DNA of 45,252 nucleotides, counting the filler, from Jimgerdemannia flammicorona (taxonomy: Eukaryota), in assembly GCA_003990765.1 (NCBI GenBank). It is 2 parts of 2 records of this genome, joined end to end, with 100 filler letters (N's around TTAATTAATTAA, not from the genome) between each part and the next. Parts side by side here need not be neighbours in the genome. Positions count along the whole stretch, not along the records: positions 1 to 22,579 come from RBNJ01001244.1; 1 more part is not named here. The stretch is one strand, 5' to 3'. The notes under the pieces are model-generated. The model worked only from the letters and a program-made list of their open reading frames with translations. It did not search any database and was not told the origin of the DNA. Made by a program: the position numbers and the translations under genes. This document shows positions 1-42,465 of the stretch, in pieces. Numbering within the stretch: the first letter of the stretch is position 1; each line of letters starts with the position of its first letter.

Positions 1-99
1 TTCTACTTCTACCCAATCTCTCTGGAGGGTCTATCTCTTATCTCTTTATAATTAAAGATCATCAGACCATTAACTATCACTCTTTCTACTACTATATAT

Positions 100-1660
100 T
101 ATTACATAGTAGTCACTGAGTTCTTCAAATACATCAGATTCTCTTCAAGATATATCTCTTAGACTAACTCAAGTTTGTTATAAGCAAGTTCTTATTGGAG
201 TTCCTTCTCAAGATCTTATAGTCCTCAAACTTCTTATCTTTAAACTATCTTGTTATCTCTTTAGATTGTTTGCAAAGAATTGTATATATTATACTAAGTA
301 GACTAACTTTATTTCAGAGGAAATAAGAGGAGTATTTATACAAAATATAATTCAATGGTTGCTAAGATATAAAGCTAAATATAAATTTCAATAACTAAAA
401 TAAAATGATAGGACACAGAAAACTGCTAAGTTTCAGTGTCAGTACTGATGGTTGTATAGGTTCAGGATACTGGTATAATTTTGGTGATACAGAAAAATGG
501 TGCTGGAATAATTCAGTGTCACATCAAAATATCAGTGGAGGAATAGCTGTTATATAGGGAAAGAGTGCCAGCATAATTCAATATAACTAAGAGACTTTAG
601 AGCAGAATGTTCAGGACTATAGAGGCTTCATCCTTGTCCAAGGTCAGGATGTCTTCAAAGGAAATAAGGTCCACAAATGTTTCATCCATCTTATTATCAC
701 ATAGGTCACACATTTCATGTATGTTACATGGAATGATATCATTGCTAATAATGTTATCATGTTCAGTAAGAAAATTGGGGGCTCTCCAATCTATAAGATT
801 CTCTTCCATAAAATAGGAAACAAATGTAGAGTTTTGGAGAGGTCTAACCTGAATGCTTGGGCCTTGGAATACTGAGATCAATTCTTGCAGAAATTGGTCT
901 GGGTTGTCCTGGAGGATGGGATATCAGAAGTCTTCTACTTTATCACTATTGAGGGTAATAGTGGACTGGGCTTCTATAGCCACCCTGGCTTCTAGTGTAT
1001 TAATATGGTAGGCTGACAGGTCTCTGAAGTCTGAGACTCTAATATACTCCAAGTTGGGGATCAATTATAGTACATGCCTGAAGATCTGATGGATCTTCTT
1101 AGCTGTTCTTGTTTTGCATATATCCATGAGAGTGGTATCTTGTAACTCTTGAGGGCTGACCTGTAGAAACTCCTGGCAGAGAAAGTTTCCTATTTCATAC
1201 TTCTGTCATATTTGGAGGTATTCAGTAGCAATGGTGATCCTTGTTTCCATTTCACAGTAGTAGAGGATAAAGTGATAAGAATCCACAGTACCCAGGTTGA
1301 CACTAGGAGTTCTTCTTGTATGGGTCCTTATGGCTCTTCTGATATCTTAGAACATTCTTTCTATGACTGAGGTGCCTTGGTAGTTCCTTGACCTTGAGAT
1401 TTGGCAAGTAGCAGGCATTTCATTTGTAGTAAGTCTTGAGCTATTTTGGGATTAGTGGGTCTTGTTGAGTTACTACTACTATAGTTCCTTAATCCTTCTT
1501 TTATATTTCTCAAGATATCTATACTGTAGTCATAATGACTCATGGTTGGTCATAATTGCTCATCTTGTATGCTATATGATCTTCTTGTACTCTAATCTGG
1601 TGGCTTGCAAGGAAAAGCTGTCTCCTGTATTGATGTTATCATTCTAAGATCACTATTATA
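100..1660 (-). repeat. 3' LTR of element A (about 1560 bp)
   Basis: Aligns to 7337-7926 plus 9137-10108, with differences that are almost all transitions. Minus-strand TATAAA at about 340 is followed by AATAAA at about 312. PPT is adjacent. Confidence 0.93.
597..1418 (-). pseudogene. LTR(U3)-encoded accessory ORF, 273 aa, unknown function; disrupted only by transition-type stops
   Basis: One frame from ATG 1418 (MPATCQISRSRNYQGTSVIERMF) to TAA 597 (...SIVLNILL). The four internal stops are TAA/TGA; both TGA codons read TGG in the other LTR copy. Confidence 0.75.
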
Positions 1661-1670
1661 TCTTCCTCCT
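1661..1670 (-). other. Polypurine tract of element A
   Basis: AGGAGGAAGA on the minus strand immediately before the 3' LTR. Confidence 0.75.
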
Positions 1671-2029
1671 GAATAAGAATCTTCTTGAATATCCTTATTC
1701 ATTAGTCCAGTTCTGAAAAATTTACTGATCTCATAACCTCTGGCAAGAGGTCAAAAAGTGGTGTTTATGGGCTGGCATCTTCTCTATGTATTTTGGCATG
1801 ATGGTGAAGAGTTGCTCTCTTTATATAAAGCAAGGGCCTGATTCTGATCTTGACCAATCAGTTGATGGTTTGAACTCCTCTGGCTTCAAAAGTCTCATGA
1901 ATGAGTAGTTGCTGGTACCATATCTCTTAGAGAATGATCCAGACAGATAGCCTGCTGGTCATGAGATATGCTATTATGATTTGCAGACTAGAACCTCACA
2001 GGCAGTCATTATGTTTTACTTCTCTTATA

Positions 2030-5000
2030 TAGGTTTATGGTACTTCTTGAGTCTATTCCTGTATACTATAGTAGGCAGTATGGTCCCTGAAATTTTTCTA
2101 AGCCAGAAGGTAGTTCTCTTGATATCTTATATATAGAAGAGTCCTTACCATTTGAACTCCAGTTTTTGCAACCATGAAGCTTCTACTATATTTCAATACA
2201 GTAGGACCTTTTCTCTAATTTGGATGGGTTCTAGGGTCTTGTGATTCTTTTCTGCATTCTGTCTTATTAGTACTTGTAACTTGATAATATAATCTTCAGC
2301 CCTCTTTCTGATTTGGTGTAGTCTCTGGATTTCCAAGTCAACCCATCTCTAAGTTAGGTCTAGATTTGAGGCTGAGGTTCTATCAGAATCTTCTTCTCTG
2401 AAGAGTAGTTCTCTTGGGGTAAAGTGTGTACTCTATAACTATATGTCTCATAGGACAGAAAGGGCAGTTGGGAGGTAGTTATCCCAATTCTCATATATCT
2501 CTGAGATCTTCACCAGGATGTTCTTAAGGGTCTTGTTGGTTCTCTCTGTCTGTCTATTTCCTTGAGAGTGATATGCAGTGGTCTTGATATGCTGGATCTT
2601 ATATTTCTGATACATTATCTCATGGAATTTATTGATAAATTCTGTGCTGCAGTCTGTTGTAATTTGCTTTGGTTTCTTATAGTGACAGATGATTTCTTGG
2701 TACAGGAAGTCAGCTATAGAGAGAGCATTGGCTTCTTGTAATGCTCCTACTTCTATCCATTTCATAAAAAGGTCTACAATAACTATAATATAGCAGTTTC
2801 CTGATAGTGTTACTGGTAGTGGTCCAATGATATCTATTGCAATGTAGTGGAAGGGGATAGACTCAATTCTTGATGACTCAGGTATCTGGTCTTACTGATC
2901 TTATTTCTGTTTTTGGTACTTGTCACACCCTTTGACAAATTGGCACAGGTCTTCTTCTATCTTGGACCACTATATGGTTCTTCTTGCCTTATTATATATG
3001 TTGATTCCTCTTAGATATCCTTACTCATATACTTTCTTCATTACTTGATACTTCTTGTGTTCAGATATTACAAGCTTTTCTCCTTTTCTAAGTGTGGTGT
3101 TGTCTAGTTCAAACTGTTTCCAAGTCTGGTTAATAATGGTGATTGTTCAGAGTTTGAGATGGTTGAGCATCTTCTACTGCCCAAGATAGCTGATTAATCC
3201 ATAGTATAACTCCTTATTCATGTTGAATAGTCTTGATGGGGATGTTTTGGGGTATCCTTGAGAGTGTATCAGCATTGGTATTGATTCCTTCTGAGTGGTG
3301 CTTGACAGTATAGTCATACTCTTATAGCCTGTAGATCCATCTGGCTTATATTTCTTTGAAGTTCAGAGTGTGTAATAGCTAGGCAAGAGTGGAATGATCT
3401 GTTTGAATAGTGAAGTATTTTCTGGCTAGATAGTAGTGGAACTTGTCTACTGTCCAAACTACTGCTAAGCATTCAAGCTTGCATGACTTATAGTTCTGTT
3501 CTGCTTTATAGATACCTTGGCTTGCATAAGAGATGATATATTCATATCCATCTTTCTTCTGAGCTAGGACTGCTCCAAGTTCTATAGTACTTGCATCTGT
3601 CTGCAGAATGAATTCTAGGTTCCAATCTAGTTTTCTGAGGATGGGTGTTTGGGTCAATCTGGTCTTGAGTTCATTGAAGATTTCTTGGCATTTCTTAGTT
3701 CATTCGAATTTGGTCTCCTTCTTCAGTAGCTCATAGATAGGTGCTGTAATGTTAGAGTATCCTTTGATAAATCTTCTATAGTAGCTAGTCAGTCCAAGGA
3801 AGGCATGGACTTCTGTGGTTGTTCTGAGTCTTGAGTAGGCTGCAACAGCCTCAATCTTCATAGGTCTGTGTGGATTCTGGTCTGGTTGATGAGGTGTCCT
3901 AGATAGGTAATTTCCTGAGCTACAAACTTGCATTTCTTGGCTTGATATAGAGGCCATACTCTTTGAGCTTCTTGAGGGCTAACTATATGTGATTGATATG
4001 TTCCCATGCAGTATTGCTGAAGATGATTATATCATCAATATAAACAAAGAGCCATTTTCCAATCTCATTACTGAAGACTCTGTTTATCATTCACTTAAAA
4101 CTTGCTAGGGTATTGCACATTTCAAATGGTATTTGCAAGTAGATATAGGTGGCATCAGATGTGATGAAGACTGATTCCTCACTAGCATCTTGAGTGAGAC
4201 CAATCTGATAGAAGTCTGAGAACAGATCCAAGGTGATATAGTATTTGGCTTCACTTCTAAGGATGGTAAGGATTTCTTGAATATTTGGCAAGGGCTGCCT
4301 ATCCTTCTTGGTAATTGTATTGAGCTTCCTGTAGTCAATGCAGAGTCTTGGTACAAACTCTCCAGGCTTGCTTCCTTTCTTTGGAGTGAGGATAATGGGT
4401 GAAGCCCAGAGACTGATAGCTTGCTTGATGATTCTGACTTCTTCCATTTATTCTATGTAGGCAGGTAGTATAGGTCTGGCTTTCTGGTAAATGGGCTTGG
4501 TATCACCAGTGTCAACTTCATGATAATACTTGGGTTCTTGATTGTAGATATTCCTGAAGTCTGTAGCAAGTACTCCTTTATTCTGGTGCAAGATCTTGAG
4601 AAGTTGTTCTTCCAGAGAAAAGTTTTCTCTAATGGTATATGTGTGCTTGTTCTTGTCCTTGTCTTTCTTGTGCTCAAGTTTGGTAATCTTAGTGGTGGTA
4701 TAGGCTCCTCTTCTAGTAGATCTAATGCCTTGTTCTTCTCTCTTGATCTTGATGAGTTTAATGGCTTCAGTGATCTTAGGCTTCTTAATTTCATGGATCA
4801 GCATCTGGCCAATCCTGTCATGCTTCTTGACTTTGAATAGGGTGGTGGGATTGTGATTCCTGACTATAAAGAAGATCTTGCCAGTGTAATCAGGGTCAAT
4901 TACTCCTCCTTCAACTGAGATTTCACTTTTGACCAGACTGCTCCTGGTCTTGATAATTCTGACATAGTTCTCTAGCAGCTTGACTCCAATTCTAGTGCCA

Positions 5001-5830
5001 AGTAGGGTGGTGGTCTGTGGTTCAATGATAGCATCTTGAATGCTGGCAAGGTTCATTCCTATGGCTCCTTTAGTATTGTATTCTGGGATCTTGGCTTCAG
5101 GGTGAAACTTCTTGATGTTGAGGGTGATGTCTGATTCTTGTTTCTCCTCATCATCACTGTTAGCTTGAAGCTCTGGGGGCTGGTCATCTTCTTCAGCTTT
5201 CCTTTTTGTTTCAGCAGCTTCTTGCTCATACTTCTGTTGGTGGATTTTTCTGACTTCACTGATATAGAACCAGTAGTCATTTAGGTATTTAGAACAGTAT
5301 ATCCTAGTGCTATGGGGGCATCTTCCTTGAGGAGTATAGCCATTGATGATCTTATTATACCACTGCTCATCTTTGAGCTTAGGTGTCTTGTTCTTGTTCT
5401 TGTTCACCAAGTGCATGAAGACTTCTGTGTCCTCTTTATCTCCTTCCTCTATATCTGGTAGAACTCCTTTGTGGACATTGATAGAGACTCATATCTTTCT
5501 TCCTCTATATTTGATCTACATCTTCTGGGCATTGAGATCAATGATGGCCTTGGCCTTGTGAAGCCATTAGTTGCTAATGAAGATATCATAGTTAGTGGTA
5601 CTTGTAAAAATCACATCTACTGAGATAGTAGCTCCTCCTATCTTGATGGGGACTTCTCAGATTTTGTCAAGAGGGGTAGCTCATGTACCATCTGCTGTGA
5701 CATAGACTATCTTGGTGGACTCTTCAATATCCCAGCCTAGGTGGTCAATTGTCTTCTTGCTTATGAGGCATCCTCCAGTACTAGTATCAATGATGGCATC
5801 AAAGATATAATCTTCGATCTGACATAGGAT
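2030..5830 (-). pseudogene. pol: pol of element A: aspartic protease, dUTPase, reverse transcriptase, RNase H, integrase with GPY/F-like tail
   Basis: PR AIIDT(S/G) at about 5790. RT SLWASPIIL...RLCIDYRKLN...LDLFSDFYQI (4091-4447). RH FILQTDAS...ECLAVVW...TDH (3379-3657). IN ITTDCSTEF...TTAYHSQGNRQTERTN (2448-2765). Many stops. Confidence 0.93.
4712..5125 (-). pseudogene. Trimeric dUTPase domain within pol of element A
   Basis: Degraded motifs I-V: GAIGMNL, TRSSL, VEGGVIDPDYTGKI, DRIGQM, REEQGIRST, inside ORF 4448-5416. Confidence 0.92.
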
Positions 5831-7300
5831 GTAGGCTGATGTTTTGCACTGGTCTTCAGATTCTTTGCCTGAGTCTTCAGATTCTTCTTATACATTATGG
5901 ACTTCTACAATCTTATACTCTTAATTCTTGGCAATAGTTGCAAGTTCTGCTCTCAACTGCTATCAAGGCAGAGACTTCAGCTAGTTATCCAAAAGTAACA
6001 TTGACCTTCTATTCCTTGAGGTCCTTATAGATATCATACTGATGGATCTTGGTCTTGCACAGCTTCTGTTTCTTCTTGCTTTTGCTTTCTCCTAAGACTG
6101 AAGTAGTGTCTCCAATGATTTGGTGAGCAGCTTTATCTAACTCTATGTCTTGATCAATCTCCTCAGGCTGGGTCTTGCTCTGAATGGTGATAGCTGGGGT
6201 TTTCTTTGGTCTTCCAACTAGCTTACTATTGCTCTTCTTATCATAGAGCTTGGACCAGATTCTGGTACCTTCAGTAGCAGGGTAGAATTCAAGCTCCTTA
6301 TAGTATTCTTCATCATCAGAGTCACCAATCTCCTCAATGACTACTGCATTGGTTTATTCTCTGGTTTTGCTAGTATTGCTTGGTTGAGCTTTGTATCTTG
6401 TTTTGATTATACAGCTCTTTGCATAGTGGCCTTCTTCTTCATATCTGAAGTATGTGATATTGCATTCTTCTGTAGCAGCTGCAAATCTCTATACTGGTCT
6501 CCTGTTGGCACTTTGGACTTCTCTAACAATATCACCAAGGTGTACAGTTATCTCAGCAAACTGCTTGGTGAGTTCCTCCACTGAGTCAACTTTGGTTACT
6601 TTGGGGATAGGTGGGAATGATTATCTGTTTACAACTGTAGTGAGTATGATACTAGTTAGCTTTGATGGCTCTATTTTGATGCTAGATTTTCTCCATTGAG
6701 TATTTGGTAGGGTGTCTGATAGTCCAATATCTCTGTACAAAGACCACTTTCTGATCAAGGGTCAGTGTAGCTGGGATAGACTGGATTGCTAGGGCAATTT
6801 CAGAGTAAACTCCTTTGAGGAAGGTTTAATCTGCTATTTGTTCCTTGAGGACATTATCATAGTTAGCCAAGACAATCTAGTGGCAGATTCAGGTATAGAA
6901 TGAATTAGGATCTTTACTAAGTCTCTGGTAGATAGTATTGAGTTGATTCTTAAGAGCTTGCTTGATCTCTTTAGTATAGTATATTGTTCTGAGGAAGGCC
7001 TTCATGTTGGCAAGTTTGGCTACACTATTATCAGTAATAGTAGCTATATTGAACTTATCTCTGGCAGATCCTCTGAGGCTGACTAGTACATAGAAGGGCC
7101 AATTGTGCATCTACACTGAGAGCTCATATAGCAGCAAATTGTTCAAAGTCTTCAATGAAGGTCAGGATTAACTCTTCAGTAGTATATCTATAGAATGTGA
7201 GGGGATACATTTCTATCTTATCTTGAATTTTTGCAGGGGTGACTCTTGTAGTCAGAGTAGTTGTTATGGTAGTTATTTGTTTTTCAGCTTGAAAGTGAGA
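5830..7300 (-). pseudogene. gag: gag of element A with mutated CCHC zinc knuckle
   Basis: TYFRYEEEGHYAKSC at about 6410-6460 equals CX2CX4HX4C with TGC/TGT>TAC/TAT. It lies between PBS and protease. Boundaries approximate. Confidence 0.8.
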
Positions 7301-7309
7301 GATTCATCT

Positions 7310-7336
7310 TGAATCACCAGCCAATAGGTATCAAGT
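7310..7336 (-). other. Probable primer-binding site of element A
   Basis: Minus strand after the LTR end reads act-TGATACCTATTGGCTGG (TGG mutated). A homologous sequence sits next to another LTR at 13460-13488. tRNA not assignable. Confidence 0.55.
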
Positions 7337-7922
7337 TGTCACATAGTGATCACTGAGTCCTTTAAATATATCAGATTCTCTTCAAGATATATCTCTTAGA
7401 CTAACTTAAGTTTGTTATAAGTAAGTTCTTATTAGAGTGCCTTCCCAAGATCTTATAGTCCTCAAACTTCTTATCTTTAAACTGTCTTGTTATCTCTTTA
7501 GATTGCTTGTAAGGAATTGTATATATTATACTGAGTAGACTGACTTTATTTTAGAAGAAATAAGAGGAGTATTTATACAAAATATAATTCATTGGTTGCT
7601 AAGATATAAAGCTAAATATAAATTCCAATAACTAAAATAAAATACCAGAATATGGAAAACTGCTAAGTTCCAGTATTAGTACTGATAGTTACACAGGTTC
7701 AGGATGCTGGAATAATTTTGATGATACAGAAAAATAGTACTGGAATAATTCAGTATCATATCAGAATACTGGTGGAGGAACAGCTGTTACATAGGAAAAG
7801 AGTGCTGGCATAATTCAGTGTAACTAAGGGACTTTAGAGCAGAATGTTCAGAACCATAGGGGCTTCATTCTTGTCCAAGGTCAGGATGTCTTCAAAGGAG
7901 ATGAGGTCTATAAATATTTCAT

Positions 7923-7962
<40 letters not shown>

Positions 7963-10108
7963 GGACTCAATGTCCTGCAGATTTTTATTGGAAGGGAACC
8001 TAGACTATATAGGTCAAAACCCTCCCCAACCACCCATCAAGCACTGCCCCCCCATTAACCTAGGCTAGCTATTGTCCAGCAGCTCAATCATGCCAGGCGC
8101 AGCAGGGCCAATGGCAGCCTACACCTCATTATGCACACTATGCTCTTCCTACCACCAGGGGAAGCCCAACCATATGCCAACAACCAAAAGCGTATGCCCG
8201 AGAACCCAATGTATGTATAAGGCTATACCCGAGCCAAATAGAATAGCCCCTACCATCTCAAAGAGAATGATAGACAAAGAAAAAACCCTCATCAAAGTAC
8301 AACATAGTGGGTAGGGCCTGGTTCTCCCAGTCAAGGTGAGTAAAGGACTTATATATGAGGCAGGAGGAGACTCCCAATACCCCACTACTCAAGTCTGCGG
8401 GCCTTGATCACATTGCCATATCAGCTCCTGGTTTCAGTTGAGTACAGCCAAGATATCTGAAATGGGTAGCCTCAGGCCCCCTGATGACCAGGACCTAACC
8501 CACCAACCTGCCAAAAGAAGCCAAGAGTGTCACCTACCACCTAACCACACTACATCAATCAAAAGGCTCTACTAAAGTAGCACTCACCCCAGCTCTGATG
8601 ACTGCCCCCAGCCTGGTACTCCACTGGTTTACCATTATTGCCCTTCCTCCTATCTGTGATGGCCATCTCCCCTCTCATCCTGACATCACCTGAAAAGCAG
8701 TCACCTATGCCAAAACCACACTCGCCAAGAAGCTCGCCAAAGCCAGAGGGCCCTACCACAGGTACCGAGGACCTACAGGTAACCTATACTGAGTACTTGA
8801 TGCCCAAGGTTGGCCAACTCCCTATATAGCCTGAGACATACTGAGACACCACCTTGTTGGTGATGGCAAAAGGAAGAAGGCACTGTACCAAAACAGATGC
8901 ACTCTAGATACAGCTGAAGGCACCAGACACCACAAAAAAGTGGAGAAGACACCAATCTGACACCAATAAAGGGGCAACTCATTACTATTACCCTCCTTCC
9001 ACCATATCCATGTAGGCACAGCAAACCAACCTGAGATAGAGGGGGTAATAATAGGAGAAAGGGGACTCGAAAGATTGCCTACCAAACCTTATGACTGATA
9101 AGGTAGCAGAGAAAGGAGTGTAAATGTTTCATCTATCTTATCATTACATAGATCATATATTTCACATATATCATATGAGATGACATCATCACCAATAATG
9201 TCATCATGTTCAGTGGGAAAATTAGGAGCTCTCCAATCTATGAGGTTCTCTTCCATAAAATAGAGAACAAATGTAGGGTCTTGGAGAGGTCCAACCTGGA
9301 TACTTGGGCCTTAGAATACTGAGATCAATTCTTGTAGGAATTGGTCTGGGTTATCCTAGAGGATGGAATGCCAGAAGTCTTCTACTTTATCACAATTGAG
9401 AGTAATAGTAGACTGGGCTTCTGTAGCCACCTTGGCTTCTAGTATATTGATATGGTGGACTGACAGGTCTCTGAAGTCTGAGACTCTAATATACTCTAAG
9501 TTGGAGACTAACTATAGTGTATGCCTGAAGATCTGATGGGTCTTCTTAGCTGTCCTTGTTTTGCATATATCTATAGGAGTGGCATCTTGTAACTCTTGAG
9601 GACTGGCCTATGGAAACTCCCAGTAGAGAAGGTTTCTTATTTTGTACTCCTGCCATATTTGGAGATATTCAATAGTAATAGTGATCCTTGTTTCCATTTC
9701 ACAGTGGTAGAGAATAAAGTGATAAGAATCCACAGTACTCAGGTTGACACTAGGAGTTTTTCTTGTGTAAGTCCTCATGGCTCTTTTAATATCTTAGAAC
9801 ATTCTTTCTTCAACTGAGGTGCCTTGGTGGTTCCTTGACCTTGAGGTTTGGTGAGCAGCAGGCATTTCATTTATGGTAAGTCTTTGAGCTATTTTGAGAT
9901 TAGTGGGTCTTGTTGAGTTATTGCTACTGTAGTTTCTTGATCCTTCTTTTATATTTCTCAAGATGCCTATACTGTGGTCATAATGACTCATAGTTGGTCA
10001 TAATTACTCATCTTGTATACTGTATAATCTTCTTGTACTTCAATCTGGTGGCTTACAAGGAAAGGCTGTCTTCTGTGCTGATGTCATTATTCTGAGATCA
10101 CCATTACA
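7337..10108 (-). repeat. 5' LTR of element A, interrupted by a LINE at 7927-9120
   Basis: Homologous to 100-1660; TGTCAC...CATTACA termini. Confidence 0.93.
7927..9120 (-). mobile_element. 5'-truncated non-LTR retrotransposon (LINE 3' end) with poly(A) tail
   Basis: Poly(T) 7926-7959. TSD of about 16 bp: TAAATATTTCATCCAT (7911-7926) / TAAATGTTTCATCTAT (9121-9136). The insert is absent from the sister LTR and homologous to 11321-12414. Confidence 0.88.
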
Positions 10109-10696: not shown

Positions 10697-13250
10697 TGTT
10701 ACATAGTTCTGAAAGAGTTTTCTGGAAGTTCTGGATATTCTGGAAGACCATTTTCTTAAGGTCAAGATCAATTTCATATGGAGTACATTCTCTATACTTA
10801 TTGATTTCAAGTTTAGATTGATATCTCAACCAAAGTCCTTATTTGGACTAGTTCTGGATGTTCAGAATTTTCCATATTTCAGGAAGTTCAAAAAACTAAG
10901 ACCAGTTTAGTTGAATTGGTATATCACTGCAGACAATACCCAATTAGGAAATTTCATGATAGAGTTAGGAGTGAGACCTAATGAGGAGCAGATTTACTTA
11001 AGAGTAGTTTGTGGAATATTAAATAGGTTTATTCACTATTCATAATATTACTATGTATACTAGAAGTAGTTGTGTGAAGGGATATTGTGGGAAAGTGTTC
11101 AGAAATGTTCTTATGTGTTTGAGTCTATTCAAGTCTAAGATTCTGAGGTCTGGAGAAGAGGATATTTATACTAATAAGAGACTATCTAGATAATGCTGAA
11201 TATAGATGTAGTACTTAGTATCTTGCTGAGTTGAAATGTAGTTACATAGTATAAGGCTAATCTAACTATGCTATGACTGCTAAGCTATTTATAGATTTAG
11301 ATACTGTCTGGTTAGTCTTTTTTTTTTTTTTTTAATAGACTCATAGTCTTGCAGATTTTTATTAAAAGGGAATCTAGACTATATAGGCCAAAACCCTCCC
11401 TCAAACAATATCCTCTCATTAACCTAGGCTACTAAACTGTCCAGTAGTCTCACCACTCTAGCTATATCTGTCAAACACCAGCTACATTGACCCCCATGAT
11501 ATAGACTAAACTTATCTACTTGCCAGGACTGAATCATTATTTACATATAAGAGCACACCTATGTATTAGATCTAGCAGTGCTGGGACTGAATAAAGAATA
11601 GCCTTCTGAACCCCAAAAGAAAGCTTGAGGCAAAGAAAAAACCCCCCAATCAACCAACAGAGAGCAAAGTAGATTCAAAGTAGGTGAGTAAAGGACTTAT
11701 ATGTAAAACCTTCTACAAAGGACTTACATATGGGCTAGGGTCAGAAAAGACCTCACTCCCACTCTCTGAGCCTGTGGGCCTCAATCATGTTGCTGTGTTA
11801 GCTCCCAGTTCTAGTCAGATACAGCCAAATGAGAAAGGCCCCACTCCCCAAACCTGTGGACCTTGATCATGTTACTATATCAGCTCCTGGTTCCAGTTAG
11901 GTATAGTCAGGATACCAGCCCCTGCACCACCCTACTCCTTACTAGCCAATTGAAAGGCTCTACTGAAATATTATCCACCCCAGCCCCAATGACTGCCCCC
12001 AACCTAGCACTCCACTAGTCTACCATTATTGTCCTTCCTCCTATCTGTGATGGTCATCTCTTCTCCTATTCTGACACTATCTGAAAAACAGTTACCTATA
12101 CTAGAACCATACTCACTGAGAAGCTTGCCAAAGCCAGAGGGCCCCACCATAGATACTGAGAACCTACAGATAATATATACTGAGCACTTGATGTCCAAGA
12201 TTGGCTGACTCCCTATGTAATCTATAATATACCAAGACAATACCTTATTGATAATAGTAAAAGAAAGAAGGTACCATACTAAAATAAATATACTCTAGAT
12301 ATAGTTGAAGGTACTAGAAACTGCAAAAAAGTAGAGAAAATATCAATCTGATACTGATAAAGGGGCAACTTATTATCATTGCTCTTCTCCCACTATGCCC
12401 ATGTAGACACAGCATATCTGGTTAGTCTTTGATAACATCACTATTGATGACATTATCTCTGGCAAAGTCTGAGCAGTTTTCTGACTTCTGATATCATCAG
12501 TTTCAAAGGTATCATCATCTCTATCTTTTATAAGATTAAGGCTATCCTTGGTGATAGTAGTTGTATAAGGATAACAGATCTTGGTTCTCTTTTTTTTTGG
12601 ACTACTGGTGTATTTGCAAGAACTGGCCATTCTTGTCTAGGGTGAGAGCTCTCAATGTTATGGCTGGAGATTTGAACCTCTCAGAAATGATATTTTCTAT
12701 AATCTGAGGTAATTTCTAATAGTAATATCTGTTATATGGATGGGCTTGATATTGGTTTTGACAATGTCAGCTTTCTTGAGTTCAGATGAAGCATCTGTCA
12801 TTCTCTAATAGAGGTGACACAGATAGAGTAAATAGGGTTGTTTAAATATATTTTGCTTCTATTAAGTAATGAGGTCTTTATATATTGCAGTATATCTCAG
12901 TCTTGAGTTAATAAGTACAGTTTATAAACCTTTGGTAGATAAGAGAGGTTCTTCTCATCTCGGTTTGAGTTTGGTACTTTTGGTTTCCTTTTATAATAGT
13001 ACAATATACCAAACTAGTTGTAGAGGTTCAGGGTTAGTCTTATAGTTATAGTACTTCTTCTGGTATTCTTATATCTTGGCAGTAGATTCTCATGCTTGTT
13101 GGTATATTTTGTATAACTAGATAATCTCTTTAGTAACTTATTTTATAATCTCATATGTAGTTTCCAAATTGGTTCTGAGGATGATATGTAATTTTGGTGG
13201 CTTGGAGGTTGTGTACTTATATATTAGGTCTTAAAGACTAAAGAGCATGA
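10697..13250 (-). mobile_element. 3' remnant of another Ty3/Gypsy element (integrase tail plus probable 3' LTR 10697-12452)
   Basis: Minus-strand STKLKPR*EEP at about 12950-12980 resembles the integrase KL.P.W.GP motif. TGTCATC (12452, minus) ... TGTAACA (10697) bound an LTR-like segment with a TATA at about 11165. Limits uncertain. Confidence 0.55.
11321..12414 (-). mobile_element. 5'-truncated LINE 3' end with poly(A), related to 7927-9120
   Basis: Poly(T) to 11333. 16-bp TSD TGTCTGGTTAGTCTTT (11305-11320) / TATCTGGTTAGTCTTT (12415-12430). 11950-12414 aligns with 8560-9022. Confidence 0.88.
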
Positions 13251-22579: not shown

Positions 22580-22679
22580 NNNNNNNNNNNNNNNNNNNNN
22601 NNNNNNNNNNNNNNNNNNNNNNNTTAATTAATTAANNNNNNNNNNNNNNNNNNNNNNNNNNNNNNNNNNNNNNNNNNNN
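22580..22679. other. Assembly gap with artificial TTAATTAATTAA linker
   Basis: N runs flank a 12-mer carrying stops in all six frames. Adjacency across the gap is not guaranteed. Confidence 0.9.
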
Positions 22680-25600
22680 AATTCGACGGGAGCTGCTATT
22701 ATTGCGGCAAGTATGGACACCGTGCGAATGAATGCATGAAAAAGGAAAAGGACAAGGGTGGAAAGAAAGGAAAGAGTGGCAAGCAAGCGAATAGCGCAGA
22801 TTCTAACGCCAATAAGGGAGGATTGTTCTTCGCCGATGTAGATTCGGACCCTTTTGGACCAGTGAAAAATGTGCAAGCCACCCTGACATCTACGAGATCT
22901 AGTTCTACATCCACCAGCGCCAGTTCTACCTGCAAATGCGCTTGCTCGACATCTACGGAACCCGACATTCGGAATACTTTTCAAGGTGCGAAAAGTGGCG
23001 GTGACGTAAACAGCATGTGCGCCAGTGCCAGAGACGAGTATACACCGAGCGCTAACATTGCATGCGATGAAGAGGACATCTGGCTCCTAGATTCAGGCGC
23101 ATCCCAGCATATGACTTCACACCGCGAGTGGTTCTCTACGTACGAACCCTTTGACAACCCCGTGCATATCAGATTGGGTGATAATAAGGTTATATACGCT
23201 CAGGGGAAGGGCAATGTCAGCATGTATTTGCATGGAAACGTTAAGGAACCCTACGCGACCTTTATGGACGTACTGTACGCTCCAGGGATAGGAAAGAACC
23301 TCTTCTCGATGGGTCAAACGCTAGCACGAGGGGATAAGCGAATCTCAGGAACGTGCGATGGTGTGAAGATATACGATCTCGACGGCAAAGAAGCATTAAC
23401 GACCAGGAAGCATGGATACTTATGTATACGCAATAAATGGAACGCCGAGTGGCGCAGCTGCGGCGAATGCAGCGTGGTCTGGAACAACCAGCGTAGCGTA
23501 TACCTGGCACCGGAGACTCGGACATATCAGCCCGACAAGCCTCGAACATATGATAAGGAACGGTTCGGTGAGCGGACTCCCGGACAACTTATGCCCGGAC
23601 CATATGCTATGTGATGATTGCACGATGAACAAGGCCTGTTAACAACCCTTCCAGGAACGGACGAAACGAGCCTCAGGGATACTCGATTTGGTACACTCAG
23701 ACGTATGGGGACCTGCGAGAAATAAATCACACTCCGGGAAGAAGTATTTTATTACGTTCATCGACGACTATACGCGCAAGGTCTATGTATACCTTATGGT
23801 GGCGAAGAGCGAAGCTTTGGAAAAATTCGGAGAATACAAGGCTATCGTCGAAAACGAGACCGGACGTAAAATTCGAGCACTACGCTCAGATAACGGCAAG
23901 GAGTACGTTAATAATCAGTTCAAGAACTTCTTGACGAGACACGGGATAAAACACCAAACGACGGCTCCCTATACGCCTCAGCAGAATGGCGTAGTGGAGC
24001 GTTTTAACCGAATGGTAGTGGAGATGGCCCGTACAATGCTCAACGCGGCCGATCTATCGAAGCCCTTTTGGGCCGAAGCGGTGAATACGGCGGTGTATAT
24101 ACACAATAGGTGTATTTCTCAAGCTCTAAGCAAGGATGCTTGTGGCAACGATCAGCAATCCAGGAACGAGGATAATGCTACGCCACATCAGCTATAGAGT
24201 GGAAATCGGCCCGATATCTCACATCTACGCATATTCGGAAGCGAAGCCTACATTCTAGATAAAAGCGGAAATAAGGATAAGTTTGATCCAAAGGCTACTA
24301 AGCATGTGTTCCTCGGGTATAGCAATGGTTGCAAAGCATATAGGCTGTGGAATCCAAGGAAGCGGAGAATTGTTAACTCCCGTGACGTTACATTCAAGGA
24401 ACCCGGCGTACAGGATTCACACGTGAATATCGAGAAGACAACTACGATTACACATACGCTTCCGGGAACGCCCCCGGCAATCAACCTTACGCCTCCAGTG
24501 GCCAGTACTACGCCTCCGGTGAGTCCTCCGGTCACACCCCTGAAGACACCCCCGAAAATGTCACCTATCCCGGCGAGGATTCCTTCGCCACCTCCTGGAC
24601 CGAGGATAACTGAGATAAGGGATAGCGATGACGAGACTAGTGAAGCGGAGACGATTCTCCCATCTACGAAAGGTAAACAAAAGCGCAAATCCAGGACATT
24701 GGATACAGATCTAGGAGACTATTGGAATGTTCCGAAGACCCGACGCAAGCATCACGTGAACTACGCTTGCGAGTGCGCATACTTGACAATGGTGGATCCA
24801 TGATCATATGACGAAGCCGTATCCTCCCCTGATAGCAAGGAGTGGAAGCGAGCGATGGATGAAAAGTATAATTCGCTCATCAGCAACGGTACTTGGGATC
24901 TAGTACCTCTTCTGAGGGATCGTCAAGCTATAGGATCTCGTTGGGTATATAAAGTTAAGCGTCAAAGTGATGGAAGCGTAGAGCGGTACAAGGCATGCTT
25001 CGTTGCTAAGGGATATTCACAGGATTACGGCGTAGACTATAACAAGACGTTCTCTCCCGTATTTAAGCTCACTTCTCTACGCATACTACTGGCTATCGGT
25101 GCTGAGTACGATTACGAAATACAGCAGATGGACGTTAAGACTGCGTTCCTGAACGGTGACGTAGATACGGAACTATACGTCCAACAGCCGCAAGGATACG
25201 AACTATACGACGGGCGGAAAGAGCTCATATGCAAACTACGTAAAGGGTTATACGGAATCAAGCAAGCGGTGAGACTATGGAATCGGAAGATCGATCAATA
25301 TCTGCTTGACAACAGATTTCGGCGGTGCGAAGCGGATCCATGCATATATACGCGACATACATCCTCAGAAACGGTATACTTGGGGATATGGGTCGATGAC
25401 ATCATAATCGTTGGCAAGAGGAGCCAAGTTAACGAAGTAAAAGCTACGCTATGCCAGGAATTTGAGATGACGGACTTAGGCGACGCGTCCTTCTTATTGG
25501 GGATAGCGATTACACGTGACAGAAATGAGCATGCTATACACCTATCCCAAGCCACCTATGCTAAGCAAGTACTTGAACGATTCAGGATGAGCGATTGTAA

Positions 25601-26396
25601 GCCAGTGGCGATGCCAATGGAAACTACGACGAGGCTAAGGAAAAGTGACCCTACGCCCGACAAGAACATCCCCTATAGACAAGCGGTGGGATTCCTTATG
25701 TATCTTATGCAAGGAACGTGACCAGACATCTCCTATGCAGTAAACAAAGTGGCGCAGTACGCCTCATGCTATGACAACTCGCATTGGACGGCAATTAAGC
25801 GCATATTCAGGTACATCAAAGGAACAGCAGATTATATGCTCAGTTTGGGCGGTGATAAAGGACAAAGCGGGAGTCACGTGTGTGTCTCCGGAGCTTGCGA
25901 CGCCGATTGGGCCGGCGACCTCGACGACCAGCGCTCTACGACCGGATATCTCTTCCATATCGGCAAAGGGGTTATCTCGTGGCAAACACGTAAGCAATCA
26001 TCAGTGGCCACATCCTCTATGCAAGCGGAATATCAAGCGTTGTCCACAGCAACTAAGGAAGCTGTATGGCTATGGGAATTACTAAAGGAATTAGGGTATA
26101 CTCAGGAACGAGACTCTACGCTGATCTTACAGGATAATCAATCTACGATTGCATTAGCAAAGAACCCTATACATCATGCAAGAACTAAGCATATCGACAT
26201 TCAACATCATTATATACGCGAATGCGTGGAAAACGGTACTATACGCCTGGAATATACGCCAACGGAGTCTATGACAGCAGATTCTCTTACGAAGGCCCTT
26301 CCGAGGCCAAAATTTGAACACTGCGTGCAAGGGATGTGTCTTACGAGCAACCCTACGCTACGGCCAGGATTCAGGGACCACCAACAACAACAATAA
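22680..26396 (+). pseudogene. Copia gag-pol polyprotein with one frameshift (about 23420) and four premature stops
   Basis: CYYCGKYGHRANEC knuckle, WLLDSGASQHM, WHRRLGH..CDDC, VHSDVWGP..RSDNGKEY..NGVVER, QMDVKTAFLNG, WVDDI, CDADWAGD, RTKHIDI. Stops at 23640, 24195, 24801 and 25719 are each consistent with C>T/G>A change. Confidence 0.95.
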
Positions 26397-27744: not shown

Positions 27745-28783
27745 GCAGAACTCAAGGAAATGGAAGAAGCTGGAATCATTAAGCAAGCTATTAGTCTCTG
27801 GGCTTTACTCATTGTCCTTGCCCCAAAGAAAAGAAGTAAGCCTGGAGAGTTTACTCCAAAACCCTGTATTGACTACAGAAAGCTCAATACAATTACCAAG
27901 AAGAATAGGTAGCTCTTGCCAAATATTCAAGAAATCCTTACCATCTTTAGAAGTGAAGCCAAATACTATACTATCTTGGATCTGTTCTCAGGCTTTCATT
28001 AGGTTGGTCTCACTCAAGATATCAGTGAGAAATCAGCCTTCATCACACCTAATGCTACCTATATCTACCTGTGAATGCTATTTAGAATGTGTGATGCCTC
28101 AGTAAGTTTTCAGTAAATGATAAACAGAGTCTTCAGCAATGAGATCAGAAAATAGCTCTTTATCTATATTGATGATGTGATCATCTTCAGTAATACTGTA
28201 CAGAAATATGTCAACCATATATAGCTAGCCCTCAAGAATCTCAAAGAGTATGGCCTCTACATCAAGCCCAAGAAGTGTAAGTTTGCAGCTCAGAAAATTG
28301 CCTACCTAGAACACCTTATCAACCAGATCAGAATCCACATAGACCCCATGAAAATCAAGGCTGTTGCAGCCTACCCAAGACCCAGAACAACTATAGAAGT
28401 CTATGTCTTCCTTGGACTGGCCTCTTACTATAGAAGATTCATCAAAGGATATTCCAATATTACAGCACCTATCTATGAGCTACTGAAAAAGGAGACTAAA
28501 TTTGAATAGACCAAGAAATGTCAAAAAACCTTCAATGAACTCAAGATCAGGTTGATCCAAGCACCCATCCTCAGAAGACCAGATTGGAACCTAGAGTTCA
28601 TCCTACAGATAGATATAAGTACTATAGAACTTAGAGCAGTCCAAGCTCTGAAGAAAGATGGATATAAATATGTTATCTCCTATGCAAGCTGAGGTACCTG
28701 TAGAGCAGAATAGAACTATGAGTCATGTAAGCTCAAATACCTACTAGTAGTTTGAGCAGTAGACAAGTTTTACTACTACCTAG
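27745..28783 (+). mobile_element. RT-RNase H fragment of a second family-A Gypsy copy
   Basis: Reverse complement homolog of 3426-4447; includes YIDDV at about 28165. Confidence 0.92.
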
Positions 28784-30177
28784 TGTGACAAACCAGGACA
28801 TACCACCTGAATTATACCTTAGCCAGATGATGTGAACATATAGCATAGTAACCAGCAACTATTGCTATGGAAACTGTATAAATAGCTAGACTACCAGATA
28901 AGGTATATCTGTGCAGGACCTGTACACCTGTGCCAGACCTACACACTTGTACTGGACCTGCACAACTTGCCATAGATAGCAAATCTATAGTTAGCCACAT
29001 AGCAACCAGATAGCAACCACAATATATAAATTACCCCAGAGACAAGAGTGAATAAACCTCAGTCTGAAATACAAACACCAAAGAAGCCTCTAAAGATTGA
29101 GCATTGGTCCCCTTTCCACTCCAGTCCACTTTCTAATATAAAGAAGAGTTTGTTACATTTTTTGGTTTGCTTGCCAGATAAGCCTGAAGATTTGCTGCCT
29201 AAGTTCAAGGAGAACTTTGCTGCCTTTCGAGTAATCCACTGTTTAAGGAATAAGCTGCCATTTCCAAGTTATCCACATTCCCAGAGAAAGCCACCTTGTA
29301 CAAGCCAGTTTCTGATGCAAATTCACAGTGATCTGTTATGTAAATGAAGCCAGTCTTTAATGCAACTTTGCCAAGAGACCCTTTCTAAGCCATCAGTTAT
29401 ATTTCCCAAAGAATTCACCGCCTGTTGTTCATATTCCCAGTTGAAGCTGATTTGGGAAGAACCCATGCCATCCGAGTTAATTCCCAGTTAAGCCATCATT
29501 TTCAAGAAGTCCGTCGATTCAGGAAGAATCCATATCATCCGCCATTTCCAAGTTAACTGCCATATTCCCAGAAGAACCTGATTTGGAAGAACTCGCACCA
29601 TTCAAGTAGTATTCCCAGTTGTAGTTATCTGTTGTTCCCAGTGAGCCCAAGTTATCAAGTTACTCACTGCCAGTACAATTCCCAGAAGAAGAATCCACGC
29701 CATATAATTCCCAGTGAGCCAAATCGAGCTATCTGCCAAATTATCAGAACGTCTGCATAAGGAATCCATCATGCTTACACAGAGATCGTCACACAGAAAA
29801 TTGCATAAGGAGAACCACTAAATTGCCAGACCGTCACACCCAGAAGATCGTTGCACTACACAAGATCGCTACACCCAGAAATCGCATACTTTTGGAGATT
29901 GCCTCACTACACAAAATTGTGGCATTCCCAGTTGACCCAAGAAGAAAATATATTTACACACAAATTGCCACTACACCCAGAGAACTGTTCCAATTAGGAA
30001 ATCGACACACAAATCACTCACAGATATCCAGCTTTTGACTATTATACCACTAAACACCAAAGACCTCAAGAATCTCAGAACATTTTGTTGCTTTTTGACA
30101 AAGTAACTGGGGGCTCAAGCCAAACTACATCAATCCCCAACCTTGTAATTTGCCTCCATTGAGCCAGGCACATTACA
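28784..30177 (+). repeat. 5' LTR of family B (about 1.39 kb)
   Basis: TGTGACA...CATTACA. Homologous in reverse to 41026-42425. TATA at about 29024, AATAAA at 29051. Confidence 0.88.
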
Positions 30178-30179
30178 TT

Positions 30180-30197
30180 TGGGGGCTCAACTGGAAA
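30180..30197 (+). other. Primer-binding site, probably tRNA-Pro
   Basis: TGGGGGCTCAACTGGAA two nt after the LTR resembles the canonical tRNA-Pro PBS TGGGGGCTCGTCCGGGA. Confidence 0.7.
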
Positions 30198-33100
30198 GAT
30201 TTTAAAATCAATGTGACTTTTCAGCTCACAAGAACTCACAGTCAAACTGGATACATTTGATACAACACTAATCTCTGCTACTACAGGAGAACCAGTTATT
30301 ACCAGCATCTAGACAGGAAGAGAAGTAATCACTTCAAGACTTACCAATTACCCAACATCAGAAGGATCCCAACCAGAACCAGAAGACAGTATAGCCCGAA
30401 ATCTCCAACCAGATCAACCAGACAATACAGGCAGCCCTGCTAGAGATTTTGGAGAACTCACACAAGAACTAGAAGACCTTATCACATGGACCCAATACTT
30501 TACAGCCAGACACCCTATACCAGTCCCACCAATCTCACTAACCAAACCCCTACCACAAACTCTTGTAGAACCAGAAGTAGCTCCTACAAGAATACCTAGG
30601 CCTATTCTGCTTTGTCCAAGATCCAGAACACCATCCTCAGGATACCCAAGCATCCCCATCTCTAGTGATAGTTCAGAAAGTAAATCAGAATCAGAATCCA
30701 AACTTAAACCAGAATTAGAAGAAAGTGATAACAAAATGGCCACCTCATTGCCAACCTTTGCAGGATATCCAGAGGAAGACCCCAGAGAATTCCTTGATGG
30801 AATTGAAGGAATTGCAGCCTTGAGAAATCTCTCAGATGAAAGAAAAATCACCATCTACAAAGCTCAGATCAGAGAACCAACCAGAGGAATTTTCCATTAA
30901 ACAGAAAACAACCAAGATTCAGAACTAGCAAGACAGATACAAGCAGCAATGTCTGATGAGCTAGAATATGAAGCCATGGTCCACTGGCTCATCGAAAAAT
31001 ATGCAGAAAATGAAACCTGCCATAAGGCTCAGGAATCCATCATAGGAATGAAGATAAATCTTAGAGAATCACCCAGAGCCTTCTTTACAAGAATCCAGAA
31101 GAGAATGCATTCTGCTGGGTTCAATGCCACCAACCAAGACATCATAGGTCCAATGACCTTCATGAATGGAATTTCTCCAAATATTGCCTAGTATGTCCAC
31201 ACCCTAAGCATCAGAAGGTCTGAAGAGCAAGTAGATACAGCTCAAGGATTCTTTGATATCAGGCAAGGAACTACCTGGAGTGATCATGACAAGAAGGAAG
31301 ATAAAGAAGATATCCTGGTCAAAGCCCTGCAAGGACTTCTTCAAGAACAAGAAAGATCCAAGGAAAGAAGGCCAGCCAAGGAAGGAAAGAAGGACAGAAG
31401 CGAAATCCAAGACCTCAGCTCCAAGTTAGACCGATTGGTTAGACAGATTGAAAAACTCACCACATATGAAAATTGGGACTACCAAAACAACAGAGGGTAC
31501 CCACCATAGAGGAGCCAAGGTTATCCACCAAGAGATAATAGGAATTACCAGCAAGAAGAAAGAAGGTACCCTGTCCAAGACAGAGCCCAAGTCCAATACT
31601 TTCACTGTGGACAATTTGGACACTATGCCACTGAATGTGATAATAAAAGAAGTGACTGAAGGAACTCAAAATCAGCAAACCAAAGAAATGACACTCAGTA
31701 CAAGAAGACTGAAGCCCATCCTGTTGAAGATTTTGAAGAAACAAGCAACAGTGAAGACTACAGTGACCTAGACTTGTACCCAACTAAGGTTACAATCCAG
31801 AAAACAGTCTATCCAGTAGAGAAAAGAAAGAGACCTATAGGAAGATCATCCAGGAACATCAGCAGAAGAATTATCCAAGAAGAGGATGAAGAATATGAGG
31901 AGGAACAAGTAGAAACACCTCCCCAAACCCTCTCACCTTTTGTCCCTAAGATAAATGAGTTACCACTAAAAGATGAAGAAATAGAACAAGAAGAATGGGA
32001 ACCTGCTGCTCCAAAGCCTAAGAAGAAGTACACTCTGAAGACCATGCTTAGAGATATTTACAATGAAGCCTGGCAGAAGATTCAAAAGCTAAGATGGAAG
32101 TCCCTCTCCTGCAGTTCTTGCAACTGATATCAGCTGGAGTTCGAAACAAATTGCTGAGAACCACCAGGTCTAGCACTGGCCAAGTTCCAATCCCACAGTA
32201 AGAACCAGCCTCCATCTCTGTCCAAGCAGCCAAAAGACATATCAGCACCTATCTATATGGAGATATTGGAGGACAAAAAGCGAAAATCCTCATAGATACA
32301 GAAGCAGCTGTCTGTGTCATTGCCAAATAATTCTTGGACACTCTCCAATGGCCCATTGATGGACTGTCCAACCTCAGCATCATAGTAGCAGATGGAGCCC
32401 AAACTCAACCCCTTGGAGAAGTATGAAATATCACCATCTCTCTTGGACACATTCAGTTCTCCATCCCCAAAGCTATTGTCACTGAAGCTGTCACCTATGA
32501 TATAATTCTTGGCACCAACTGGATGAAGGAAATGAATGCAGTTATTTATATCAGCCAATAAGTACTTAAGTTTGACTACTGAGGCAAGAAGTACAGAGTT
32601 AAGGTGATCAGCTATGAGCAATCGAAGAAGAAGAAGAAGATCACTATTCAGGAAGAGTATGCCAGCAGTGAAGAATCCATCACAGAAGAAGAGGAAGAAT
32701 CTGAAGATGGAAATGATCTCAGACTCAATCCCTGAATCAATCTGGTGGATGACTGACTAGAAGATAATGTTTGGGCCAAGAACACTATCCCTATTACCAT
32801 TGGAGCTATTGCAGGAGAAGCCAAAGGATGCCCCACATGCCTCAAGAGACACAAGTGTCCCGAGGACTCCTCCAAGATCATGGGAACAAGGAAATCGCCT
32901 GGCACAGCCTGTCCAGAGTGCAGAAGGAAGAAGAAGAAATACAGATATGTTTCAGAAACACCTGCAACTGAAGCTGCGAAAGTACAAGCAATTTGGGGTC
33001 AAGAATCATCTGAGGAAGAAGAAACTTCTGACCAAGAAGTTCCTGAACAAGAAGCACCTGATGAGGAAGAGGTCCCTGAACTCATTCCCTGGGATAACCC

Positions 33101-33926
33101 TCACTGGACACCACCTGAAGACAATGACCCTTGGAATACAGAAGAAGGACCCAGTATAATCATGATTATCTCCAAGAAAGAAACCCACCAAGAGAAAGCT
33201 TTTTGGCTAAGAAGATGTCCACACCAAATGATTTTCCACTCTCCCCAAGACTACTGCTATCAGTGTCATCTGTTGGACCAATAAGAAAGACAGAGACCCC
33301 AGAGACCAGAACCCCCAACTACCCTTGTACAGTCCACCACCTTTCAAGAAGTCACCACAAGATTACAAAGTTGATTTAGGGGACAAGACTTCTTCACCCA
33401 AACAGAAATATACCCCTTATCTACCCTTCCCCCAACCTATGATTAAGATGGGTACCAATTCCCAAGACAATAAGAGATAAATAGTTGGGAATATCATTTT
33501 TGGGCAATGGGATATTGCAACCATGGGAGACACCCTGACTGCTGAGACTGCAGACATTAGAAGATTCACCTCAGTCATGATGTTGCAGTACACACTTTGA
33601 AGAAAGGAGATAACCGAAGCCAGATCCAAAAAAGCCAGATTCGAAAAAGCCAAACCAAGAAGCCTGGAAAAAGAATTCTCAAGATCTATAATCTGGGAGA
33701 AGACATCCTAGCTCTCATCAGACATGCAACTCACTAAGGATAGGCAGAAGATGCCACCAACTTCATGGAAGCCCTTGACCCTACAGGAAGGAGGGGAATC
33801 AACTATCTCCGAGACCCCTCTACTGGAGCCAGATGGCCACACCTCAACCTTAGAGCTTGGAGGCTTTCTGCTAGTAGAGCTTCAGCTTTAGAAAAACCCA
33901 AACTCAGTAAGGATATTGCCCAGTAT

Positions 33927-34325
33927 GCCCTGCTGTACCCCAAGGTCAAACCCCTGACCAAAGCCCACCCAGAGGATGTAGGATATGATCTTCACAGCCT
34001 GGAGAATGAATCTATCAAGCCTGGAAAAACCTTCATAGTCAGAACCGGATTAGCCATGCAGCCATCCCAAGGAGCTTATATTCCACTGATCTCAAGGTCT
34101 GGACTTGCCAGACAAGGGATAACCATAGAAGGAGGAACCATTGACCCTAGATATATAGGTGAAATCAAGGTTATCCTACACAACAGCAGTGCAGAATAGC
34201 ACCAAATAATTAGGGGACAGAAGATTGCACAAGCAGTCTTCATGAAGGTCAAGACCCCACAGTTACAGAAAGTCTCTGAACTAACTGAAGGAACAAGACA
34301 AGCCAAGAGATTTGGAAGTTCAGGC
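33927..34325 (+). pseudogene. Trimeric dUTPase domain within pol of family B
   Basis: DVGYDL, SRSGLA, IEGGTIDPRYIGEIKV, KIAQ, RQAKRFGSSG, with one internal TAG. Confidence 0.93.
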
Positions 34326-38800: not shown

Positions 38801-39300
38801 GGCCAGGACCTTCTGGAGTGAGGCTGGTAAGGAGGCTGGGAAACAGAGGAGACAGCAGGTGTGGTGGGCTTCTAGTAGACTATCTAGGCTCTTAGAGGAC
38901 TGGGCAAGATTGGTGACATTGGAGGGGGAGGAGGATTGGAGATTGATAAGAGTAAGAATAGAGGTGGTTGAACTACAACAGGTGCTGTGGAATGAGAAAG
39001 AGGTAAGAGTCCAAGGTCTGGTAGTGTGGCTTCATTGGCAGAGGTTGGAGGAAGGAGAGAGGCCCTCAAAGTTTCTCACAAGAGCCCTTCAGGTGAGAAG
39101 GGTGCAATAAAGGTGGAAGGGGGTGCTTAATGCTAATGGTATACTGGTGTATGGCATACAAGATATTCTTGGATCATTAAAGGAGCATTGGAGTGAATTA
39201 TAGAGTGAGGAGGAGGGTGAGGCAGATACTGAAGACATTGACCGAGTGTTGGAGGATTGGTACTCTACACAAGCTGATGGACTGGGTGACTTAGGTTCAA
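35838..39300 (+). mobile_element. L1/Tx1-like LINE, 5' part (ORF1 about 35920-37955; ORF2 APE from 37975), truncated before RT
   Basis: ORF1 has RRM-like VQLLVKGVP..VMAEYGEVVDI..RTGD. ORF2 has IFSLNMNGL, DLFLLQD, GGDFN, RIDWIL, SDH and EGERPSKF. It starts CATCTCTCTC like the copy at 44937. Confidence 0.9.
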
Positions 39301-42425: not shown

Positions 42426-42465
42426 TCAGCCCCCACTAAAGAATGGTCTGTCCTTAGACAATCCT

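Follow-up and report, generated by a model that had tools for sequence, protein, structure and literature searches.

Does a fungal retrotransposon's long terminal repeat (LTR) hold a protein gene of its own? The question is raised by a 45,252-nt stretch of the Jimgerdemannia flammicorona genome (assembly GCA_003990765.1), referred to below in its entirety as the window, which begins with a complete Ty3/Gypsy element on the minus strand. An initial annotation had noticed a long open reading frame (ORF) inside the LTR of this element and had taken it for a selected accessory gene. We conclude that the locus very probably was a real protein gene, formerly under selection, inside the LTR. The frame is best described as a pseudogene copy of a genuine accessory gene belonging to the LTR of a dUTPase-bearing Ty3/Gypsy family, and since the gene belongs to the LTR, every element carries it twice.

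The decayed gene occupies positions 597 to 1418 on the minus strand and comprises 273 codons plus a stop, from an ATG at 1418 to a terminal TAA at 599-597. It lies wholly within the 3′ LTR (100-1660; 1,561 nt), as the corresponding frame does in the sister LTR, and its ATG is 243 nt inside the repeat, with the polypurine tract and the LTR start coming first. Four internal stops, at codons 24 (TAA), 71 (TGA), 118 (TAA) and 165 (TGA), interrupt the 3′ LTR copy; the extent of the frame and the number of its stops are as first described, and two of the stops, those at codons 71 and 165, do indeed read TGG in the sister LTR. The statement that the frame is present in both LTRs holds with a qualification. 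The same frame exists in the 5′ LTR, but that copy is split by a retroposon at codons 244-248, so that codons 1-248 are found at 9865-9122 and codons 244-273 at 7926-7837, separated by a 1,195-nt insertion. Its stops fall at codons 24, 86, 118, 170 and 185, those at codons 24 and 118 being common to both LTRs. When the LTR was shuffled with its dinucleotides preserved, only 1 of 2000 shuffles contained any 273-codon window, in any of the six frames, with four stops or fewer. Beyond the ORF this frame has 29 stops in 245 codons; the two remaining sense frames have 25 and 46 in 518 and 517 codons, respectively.

The four stops of the 3′ LTR copy are spaced exactly 47 codons apart, an arrangement with an estimated chance of about 5e-5 for four random places, and relatives of the protein have a further W at 211. 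The spacing arises because W71, W118 and W165 are joined by Q24. An internal 47-residue repeat was considered as its origin and rejected (hhalign probabilities 0.1-0.2%), and we treat the spacing as a coincidence.

Intact relatives of the predicted protein were sought among 5.8 billion protein clusters with a word-indexed search and among 1.84 billion representatives with an exhaustive HMMER scan; a profile search and a cluster look-up followed these up. The word-indexed search gave 4 proteins at E ≤ 0.01 among 207 candidates and the HMMER scan 5 proteins at E ≤ 0.001; the profile search gave 9 proteins, and the cluster look-up added two more near-identical members. A single metagenome locus was found, a 1,535-nt contig (L001) carrying an open relative of 291 codons. 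Altogether the family comprises 13 proteins and this one DNA locus, 87-342 residues in length and 27-71% identical to the window copy, and none of its members contains a stop. The relatives align over the whole length of the frame and have Q, W, W and W at the positions of the four stop codons, in agreement with the earlier description of these stops as transition-type. Full-length open frames are found even in diverged relatives (P0002, 271 residues; P0010, 342 residues; P0012, 325 residues; and the 291-residue L001 ORF), which are 27-65% identical to the window copy, and the motifs W[HQ]EYEI, AKK[IV]HQ[IV]FRH, LS...LEA.VA, NP[IL]LQDNPDQ[FW]LQ and F[QE]GP.I are common to the relatives down to 27% identity. 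Close relatives are 83% identical in residues 98-215, compared with 47% in the tail; this uneven constraint along the protein is counted in favor of a real gene. No fused or longer form was found among proteins of 600-2000 residues, which is weak evidence, and no relative was found in viral contigs or in contigs of prokaryote genomes. As a separate observation, L001 carries the same 12-mer, GTCAGGCGGAAC, near both of its ends (170-181 and 1481-1492; E 0.11), which might mark a repeat boundary or be due to chance.

The way in which the window copy departs from its relatives is strongly directional. A column of the alignment was taken as conserved if three or more of five close relatives were represented in it and had the same residue (n=132). 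The window copy agrees with 106 of these 132 columns and differs at 26; all 26 differences are explained by C>T/G>A changes alone in the window codon, and none by a change in the opposite direction. The window copy is therefore a worn-down form of a conserved protein: the gene family is real, and this copy of it has been eroded by C>T/G>A hypermutation. The two LTRs are 88% identical and differ by 180 transitions and 8 transversions. The ratio of observed to expected CpG is 0.01-0.05 in the transposon parts of the window, compared with a normal 0.93-1.15 in the 15-25 kb stretch. When the C/T differences between the LTRs are sorted by the next base, 54 precede A, 25 precede C and 8 precede T, although CA and CT are equally common (37% each); this excess before A indicates that, in addition to the complete disappearance of CpG, part of the change is biased to CpA, in a manner that recalls repeat-induced point mutation (RIP). 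Within the ORF, the differences between the LTRs are distributed over the three codon positions as 40/22/42, a split that says nothing about selection because these differences arose after insertion.

Further copies were examined in a DNA run labelled as soil metagenome, taken as contigs, which may be the window's own source. At ≥80% identity it contains 4,838 contigs of the element family, and 480 of the 510 places at which contigs and window differ are transitions. At place 1206, 22 contigs have a C, which restores codon 71 to TGG. The indels reported among the family contigs are 3 and 90 nt long inside the ORF, with none of other lengths there, and 1, 1, 5, 1, 1 and 1 nt long elsewhere in the LTR; few as these indels are, their lengths lean in the direction that coding predicts. 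Thus, the proposal of a selected accessory gene is supported by the intact relatives, by the one-directional decay and by the lengths of the indels in the ORF. It had been stated beforehand that a frame of another nature would keep its stops, or show frameshifts, in other copies; this was not seen.

The relatives describe a protein of about 270-340 residues in which a basic N-terminus is followed by a helical core (residues ~46-215) and by a disordered tail that is acidic and rich in indels. Taken as a whole, the proteins of the family are acidic, their isoelectric points (pI) lying at 4.1-5.9. In P0002, residues 1-45 are basic (10 K/R, pI 12), residues 46-215 form the conserved core, and residues 216-271 contain 17 D/E among 56 residues; this last part has many in-frame indels and keeps the motifs DLISFED and VLNFLL. 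We found no hydrophobic segment, the highest Kyte-Doolittle mean over 19 residues being 0.73, which agrees with the earlier view that the protein has no obvious signal peptide or transmembrane segment. AlphaFold2 models show a helical core and a disordered tail; their mean predicted local distance difference test score (pLDDT) is 46 for the window copy as query and 55 for P0002, with residues 100-160 at 72-90.

By sequence, the family is an orphan. Pfam contains no family matching the window protein, and a Pfam search with 15 members at E ≤ 1 returned only chance-level rows, ATG5_HBR for three members (best E 0.088) and T4_y05I_C for one (E 0.079). The single PHROGs row (E 0.093) is at noise level, and a profile search of PDB sequences returned nothing at E ≤ 1. 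The check by AlphaFold and Foldseek that had been suggested gave no fold match. With these weak models, the best Foldseek hit in PDB has an E of 0.88, which is noise level, and the best VIA-align score against 48,161 chains is Z 4.7, none reaching 5. In BFVD the best E was 0.15, from the model of mean pLDDT 55, and in ESM Atlas the best feature score was 0.83 and the best TM 0.33; both are at noise level. Because the models are weak, these null searches do not show a new fold, and none is implied.

The element that carries the gene is a single complete LTR retrotransposon within positions 1-10,108 of the window. Pfam matches in three read-through frames give the domain order gag (CCHC), RVP_2, dUTPase, RVT_1, RT_RNaseH, Integrase_H2C2 and rve. 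The pol order is thus that of Ty3/Gypsy, protease (PR), reverse transcriptase (RT), RNase H and integrase (IN), and the element is a Ty3/Gypsy retrotransposon with a dUTPase between PR and RT. These domains are encoded in the internal region (1671-7336, minus strand), which has accumulated numerous stops and frame changes. A search of ESM Atlas with the dUTPase ORF gave a dUTPase cluster only, at 0.83, and was uninformative as to the host. A polypurine tract, AGGAGGAAGA (1661-1670), adjoins the 3′ LTR, which is paired with the 5′ LTR at 7337-10108 (insertion included) and aligns to it over 7337-7932 and 9122-10108 in direct orientation. The 3′ LTR starts with TATAATAGTG and the sister LTR with TGTAATGGTG; the respective ends are ...GTAATA and ...GTGACA, so that the 5′ LTR reads TG...CA and the 3′ LTR, through transitions, TA...TA. 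Both LTRs share the ORF and the ~240 nt preceding it, and their outer flanks are unlike. A target duplication of 4-6 nt fits, but it proves little because the flanks are (AT)n, low-complexity sequence reading ...TATATAT before the 5′ LTR and ATATAT... past the 3′ LTR. The insertion in the 5′ LTR (7927-9121, minus strand, with its poly(T) on the plus strand at the left end) is no part of the gene and separates an upstream part of the LTR (9122-10108), with codons 1-248, from a downstream part (7337-7926), with codons 244-273 and the stop codon. It ends in poly(A) and is flanked by a 15-nt target duplication (7912-7926 and 9122-9136), which identifies it as a non-LTR retroposon. It is also ~79% like 11318-12414, its longest open frame is 101 codons, and it looks like a member of a non-LTR retroposon or SINE (short interspersed element) family. 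A further 1-kb fragment of the studied element's own family is present at 27758-28783, in opposite orientation and 85% identical to 3426-4449.

How might a gene in this position be expressed? Two TATAAA motifs are kept in both LTRs, one upstream of the ORF (1505-1500) and one downstream of it (340-335). The first is part of TATAAAAG at 1505-1498 on the minus strand, 87 nt upstream of the ATG (first base at 1505 and 9953 in the two LTRs), a candidate promoter of the LTR gene. The second is part of TATAAATA at 340-333 (340 and 7577), a candidate promoter of the genomic RNA; it lies 27 nt upstream of an AATAAA at 313-308 (313 and 7550), which is the sole canonical poly(A) signal of the LTR. In L001, CTATAAAAG is found 80 nt before the ATG, with no other TATAAA in the 1,535 nt of the contig and no ATG between the TATA and the start codon, and the 20 nt preceding the ATG are alike in L001 and the window. 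The ORF had earlier been placed upstream of the LTR TATA, but insecurely so, since the sister LTR has TATGTAA in place of the motif concerned (TATATAA, 556-550), which is probably a product of decay. A splice acceptor before the ATG was considered and found unsupported: L001 has ...CAAAG|ATG, and the window copies have no AG there.

Judging from these motifs, the gene would form a self-contained transcription unit inside the LTR. Its transcript would start from its own TATAAAAG, some 80-87 nt upstream of the ATG, and end by way of the single AATAAA of the LTR, while genomic RNA would start from the second TATA, just before that AATAAA, leaving a very short R. A short R is the arrangement of mouse mammary tumor virus (MMTV) and Rous sarcoma virus (RSV). 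With two such promoters the gene would be part of U3 and could be expressed from either of the LTRs and also from a solo LTR. As to the product, our favored guess, held at less than even odds, is a regulator acting in trans in the nucleus on the LTRs of its own family, to activate them or to counter their silencing. It is a guess from the layout alone, in which short hydrophobic motifs stand in an acidic tail behind a basic N-terminus and a helical core. Doubtful in its entirety, but worth stating, is the fuller scheme in which the LTR is a complete gene, with promoter, 270-codon ORF and poly(A) signal, that spreads a regulator or anti-silencing factor acting in trans, like Tas of foamy viruses, in two copies per insertion; this gene would be expressible even from a solo LTR and would keep the LTRs active against a host defence of cytosine methylation and hypermutation. 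If this were true, an env-less retrotransposon would have a regulatory circuit in the style of a retrovirus.

Some retroviruses have genes that lie within U3 or overlap it, such as sag of MMTV, nef, and bel2/bet of foamy viruses. Close in layout is MMTV sag, the superantigen ORF in the U3 of a betaretrovirus. Like the gene described here, it is a sense-strand gene of ~300 codons within the LTR and hence present in both LTRs. MMTV Sag, however, is a membrane glycoprotein of type II from a retrovirus of vertebrates, whereas the element studied here lacks env and has a host outside the vertebrates; the protein has no hydrophobic segment that would anchor a glycoprotein in a membrane, and the Pfam search with 15 members showed no homology to Sag. 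The foamy-virus genes Tas/Bel1 and bel2/bet, both of which extend as far as the 3′ LTR, and nef of HIV and SIV resemble the present gene as accessory genes at the 3′ end that reach U3. Tas in particular is expressed from an internal promoter and has a DNA-binding front and an acidic activating tail, to be compared with the dedicated TATA and the acidic tail found here. In contrast to these genes, the one described here is wholly inside the LTR, and no similarity to them in sequence or fold was found; with the best available model at a mean pLDDT of 55, the lack of a match is uninformative.

Among LTR retrotransposons, parts of a paper on additional ORFs (aORFs) describe env-like sense ORFs and antisense ORFs that belong to the internal region, where their place is either between pol and the 3′ LTR or ahead of gag (PMC7264820). 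As the paper presents them in these parts, such aORFs are, like the gene reported here, conserved extra genes without cellular homologues, present in most copies of a family and with no function assigned; they differ in belonging to the internal region, and the env-like ones have transmembrane segments. The present gene is not located between pol and the 3′ LTR, as the env-like class aORF-3S is, but inside the LTR, and a word search of the main text of that paper finds none of the phrases 'within the LTR', 'inside the LTR' and 'in the LTR' (PMC7264820). In passages of a paper on fungal elements, PosPlaTy3-5 of Postia placenta, one of several dUTPase-bearing fungal Ty3/Gypsy elements, has a dUTPase between protease and RT (PMC2864245), as does the backbone of the element studied here. 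For some fungal elements a figure legend in the same paper mentions an 'additional ORF with unknown function', the position of which is not stated in these passages (PMC2864245). The result listings of full-text literature searches contained no report of a protein gene inside the LTR of a retrotransposon. The layout is known from a few retroviruses, and we found it described for no retrotransposon.

Could the frame be explained otherwise? That it is a chance opening in an A-rich, stop-poor stretch might be argued from the four stops of the window copy and from the ORF list, which gives fragments only; given its rarity in shuffled LTRs, the full-length intact homologues and the wholly directional decay, we attach next to no probability to it. 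If the gene is real, it might instead lie in R/U5. In that case TATAAAAG at 1505-1498 would be the only promoter of the LTR, the genomic RNA would have the ORF as its first cistron and again at its 3′ end, and gag-pol would need splicing or reinitiation. In keeping with such an arrangement, no TATA other than the upstream one is common to the window and L001, and the downstream TATATAA is private to one LTR. However, the 822-nt ORF and then ~490 nt would precede gag on the genomic RNA, and the AATAAA would be ~1.16 kb from the start, so that transcripts would be expected to end within the 5′ LTR; moreover, the second motif, TATAAATA, just before this AATAAA, is kept in both LTRs. A position in R/U5 is less economical than one in U3, and we consider it unlikely. 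It is distinctly unlikely, in our estimate, that the product, instead of regulating in the nucleus, was a cytoplasmic adaptor that used host trafficking as Nef does or helped to assemble particles. Such a role would agree with the tail motif DLISFED, which matches the clathrin-box pattern (L-hydrophobic-x-hydrophobic-[DE]), and with the disorder of the acidic tail, but short acidic-hydrophobic motifs are equally typical of activation domains. Very unlikely, finally, is a passenger: in one lineage the LTR would have captured a gene of the host, or a small gene together with its promoter, which would be copied along with the element and play no part in its life cycle. The gene does have a TATA of its own, and the stops common to both LTRs suggest that the element was movable with the gene broken. 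Against this, no cellular or longer homologue was found, which is weak evidence, and no Pfam family matched; the same motifs persist in lineages only 27-38% identical, one of which, L001, also matches the window in the spacing from TATA to ATG; and in one DNA run the depth of coverage over the ORF region (550-998 for bins 736-1470) is no lower than that over the internal region (209-677).

Several points weigh against our own interpretation, that of a formerly selected gene in U3 with a regulatory product. Protein function has neither homology nor fold in its support, the best model having a mean pLDDT of 55. The contigs of the relatives are 600-4,848 nt long, and the LTR context of the gene is seen in this window only. 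Gene callers report open frames only, and the database proteins are to that extent selected for openness; the relatives may also come from the same sample or organism. Furthermore, both LTRs depart from the conserved residue at 15 of the 132 columns, compared with 5.5 expected under independent mutation (the shared stop at codon 118 is among the 132 columns; the one at codon 24 is not). These doubly changed columns reflect either hypermutable sites or a source copy that was already damaged, and in the latter case the element could move without the gene in cis.

The remainder of the window contains other elements. Two copies of another dUTPase-bearing Gypsy family lie at 28965-35841 (plus strand) and 41026-45252 (minus strand), in opposite orientation and with RT parts that are 82.5% alike; they share a repeat, 28965-30177 matching 42219-41026. 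The second copy has an accessory ORF (42978-42466) just before this shared repeat, which therefore seems to lie between pol and LTR and not inside the LTR. A kinship of this ORF with the LTR gene was considered and is not shown (hhalign probability 0.4%; E 1.3 for the family profile at this place). A Ty1/Copia element on the plus strand (22628-26396; zf-CCHC, Pol_BBD, rve, SH3_retrovirus and RVT_2) has few stops and is preceded by two runs of N (22580-22623 and 22636-22679). A 3-kb stretch at 36001-39000 has a GC content of ~0.50-0.53 and a very strong GC skew (+0.44 to +0.54), and its long frames match no Pfam family.

The window copy of the LTR gene is dead, and its value is that it fixes the place of the gene inside a complete, well-bounded element. 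The LTRs of retrotransposons are treated as non-coding and are masked by annotation pipelines, so that a conserved protein family located there would be missed; this family is nearly absent from protein databases, with about a dozen relatives among 5.8 billion clusters. If the product is a regulator with its own promoter, regulation like that of complex retroviruses would exist in env-less retrotransposons, and solo LTRs would be potential genes. Such a regulator would also be a concrete candidate for how families of this kind keep amplifying in genomes that methylate and hypermutate them.

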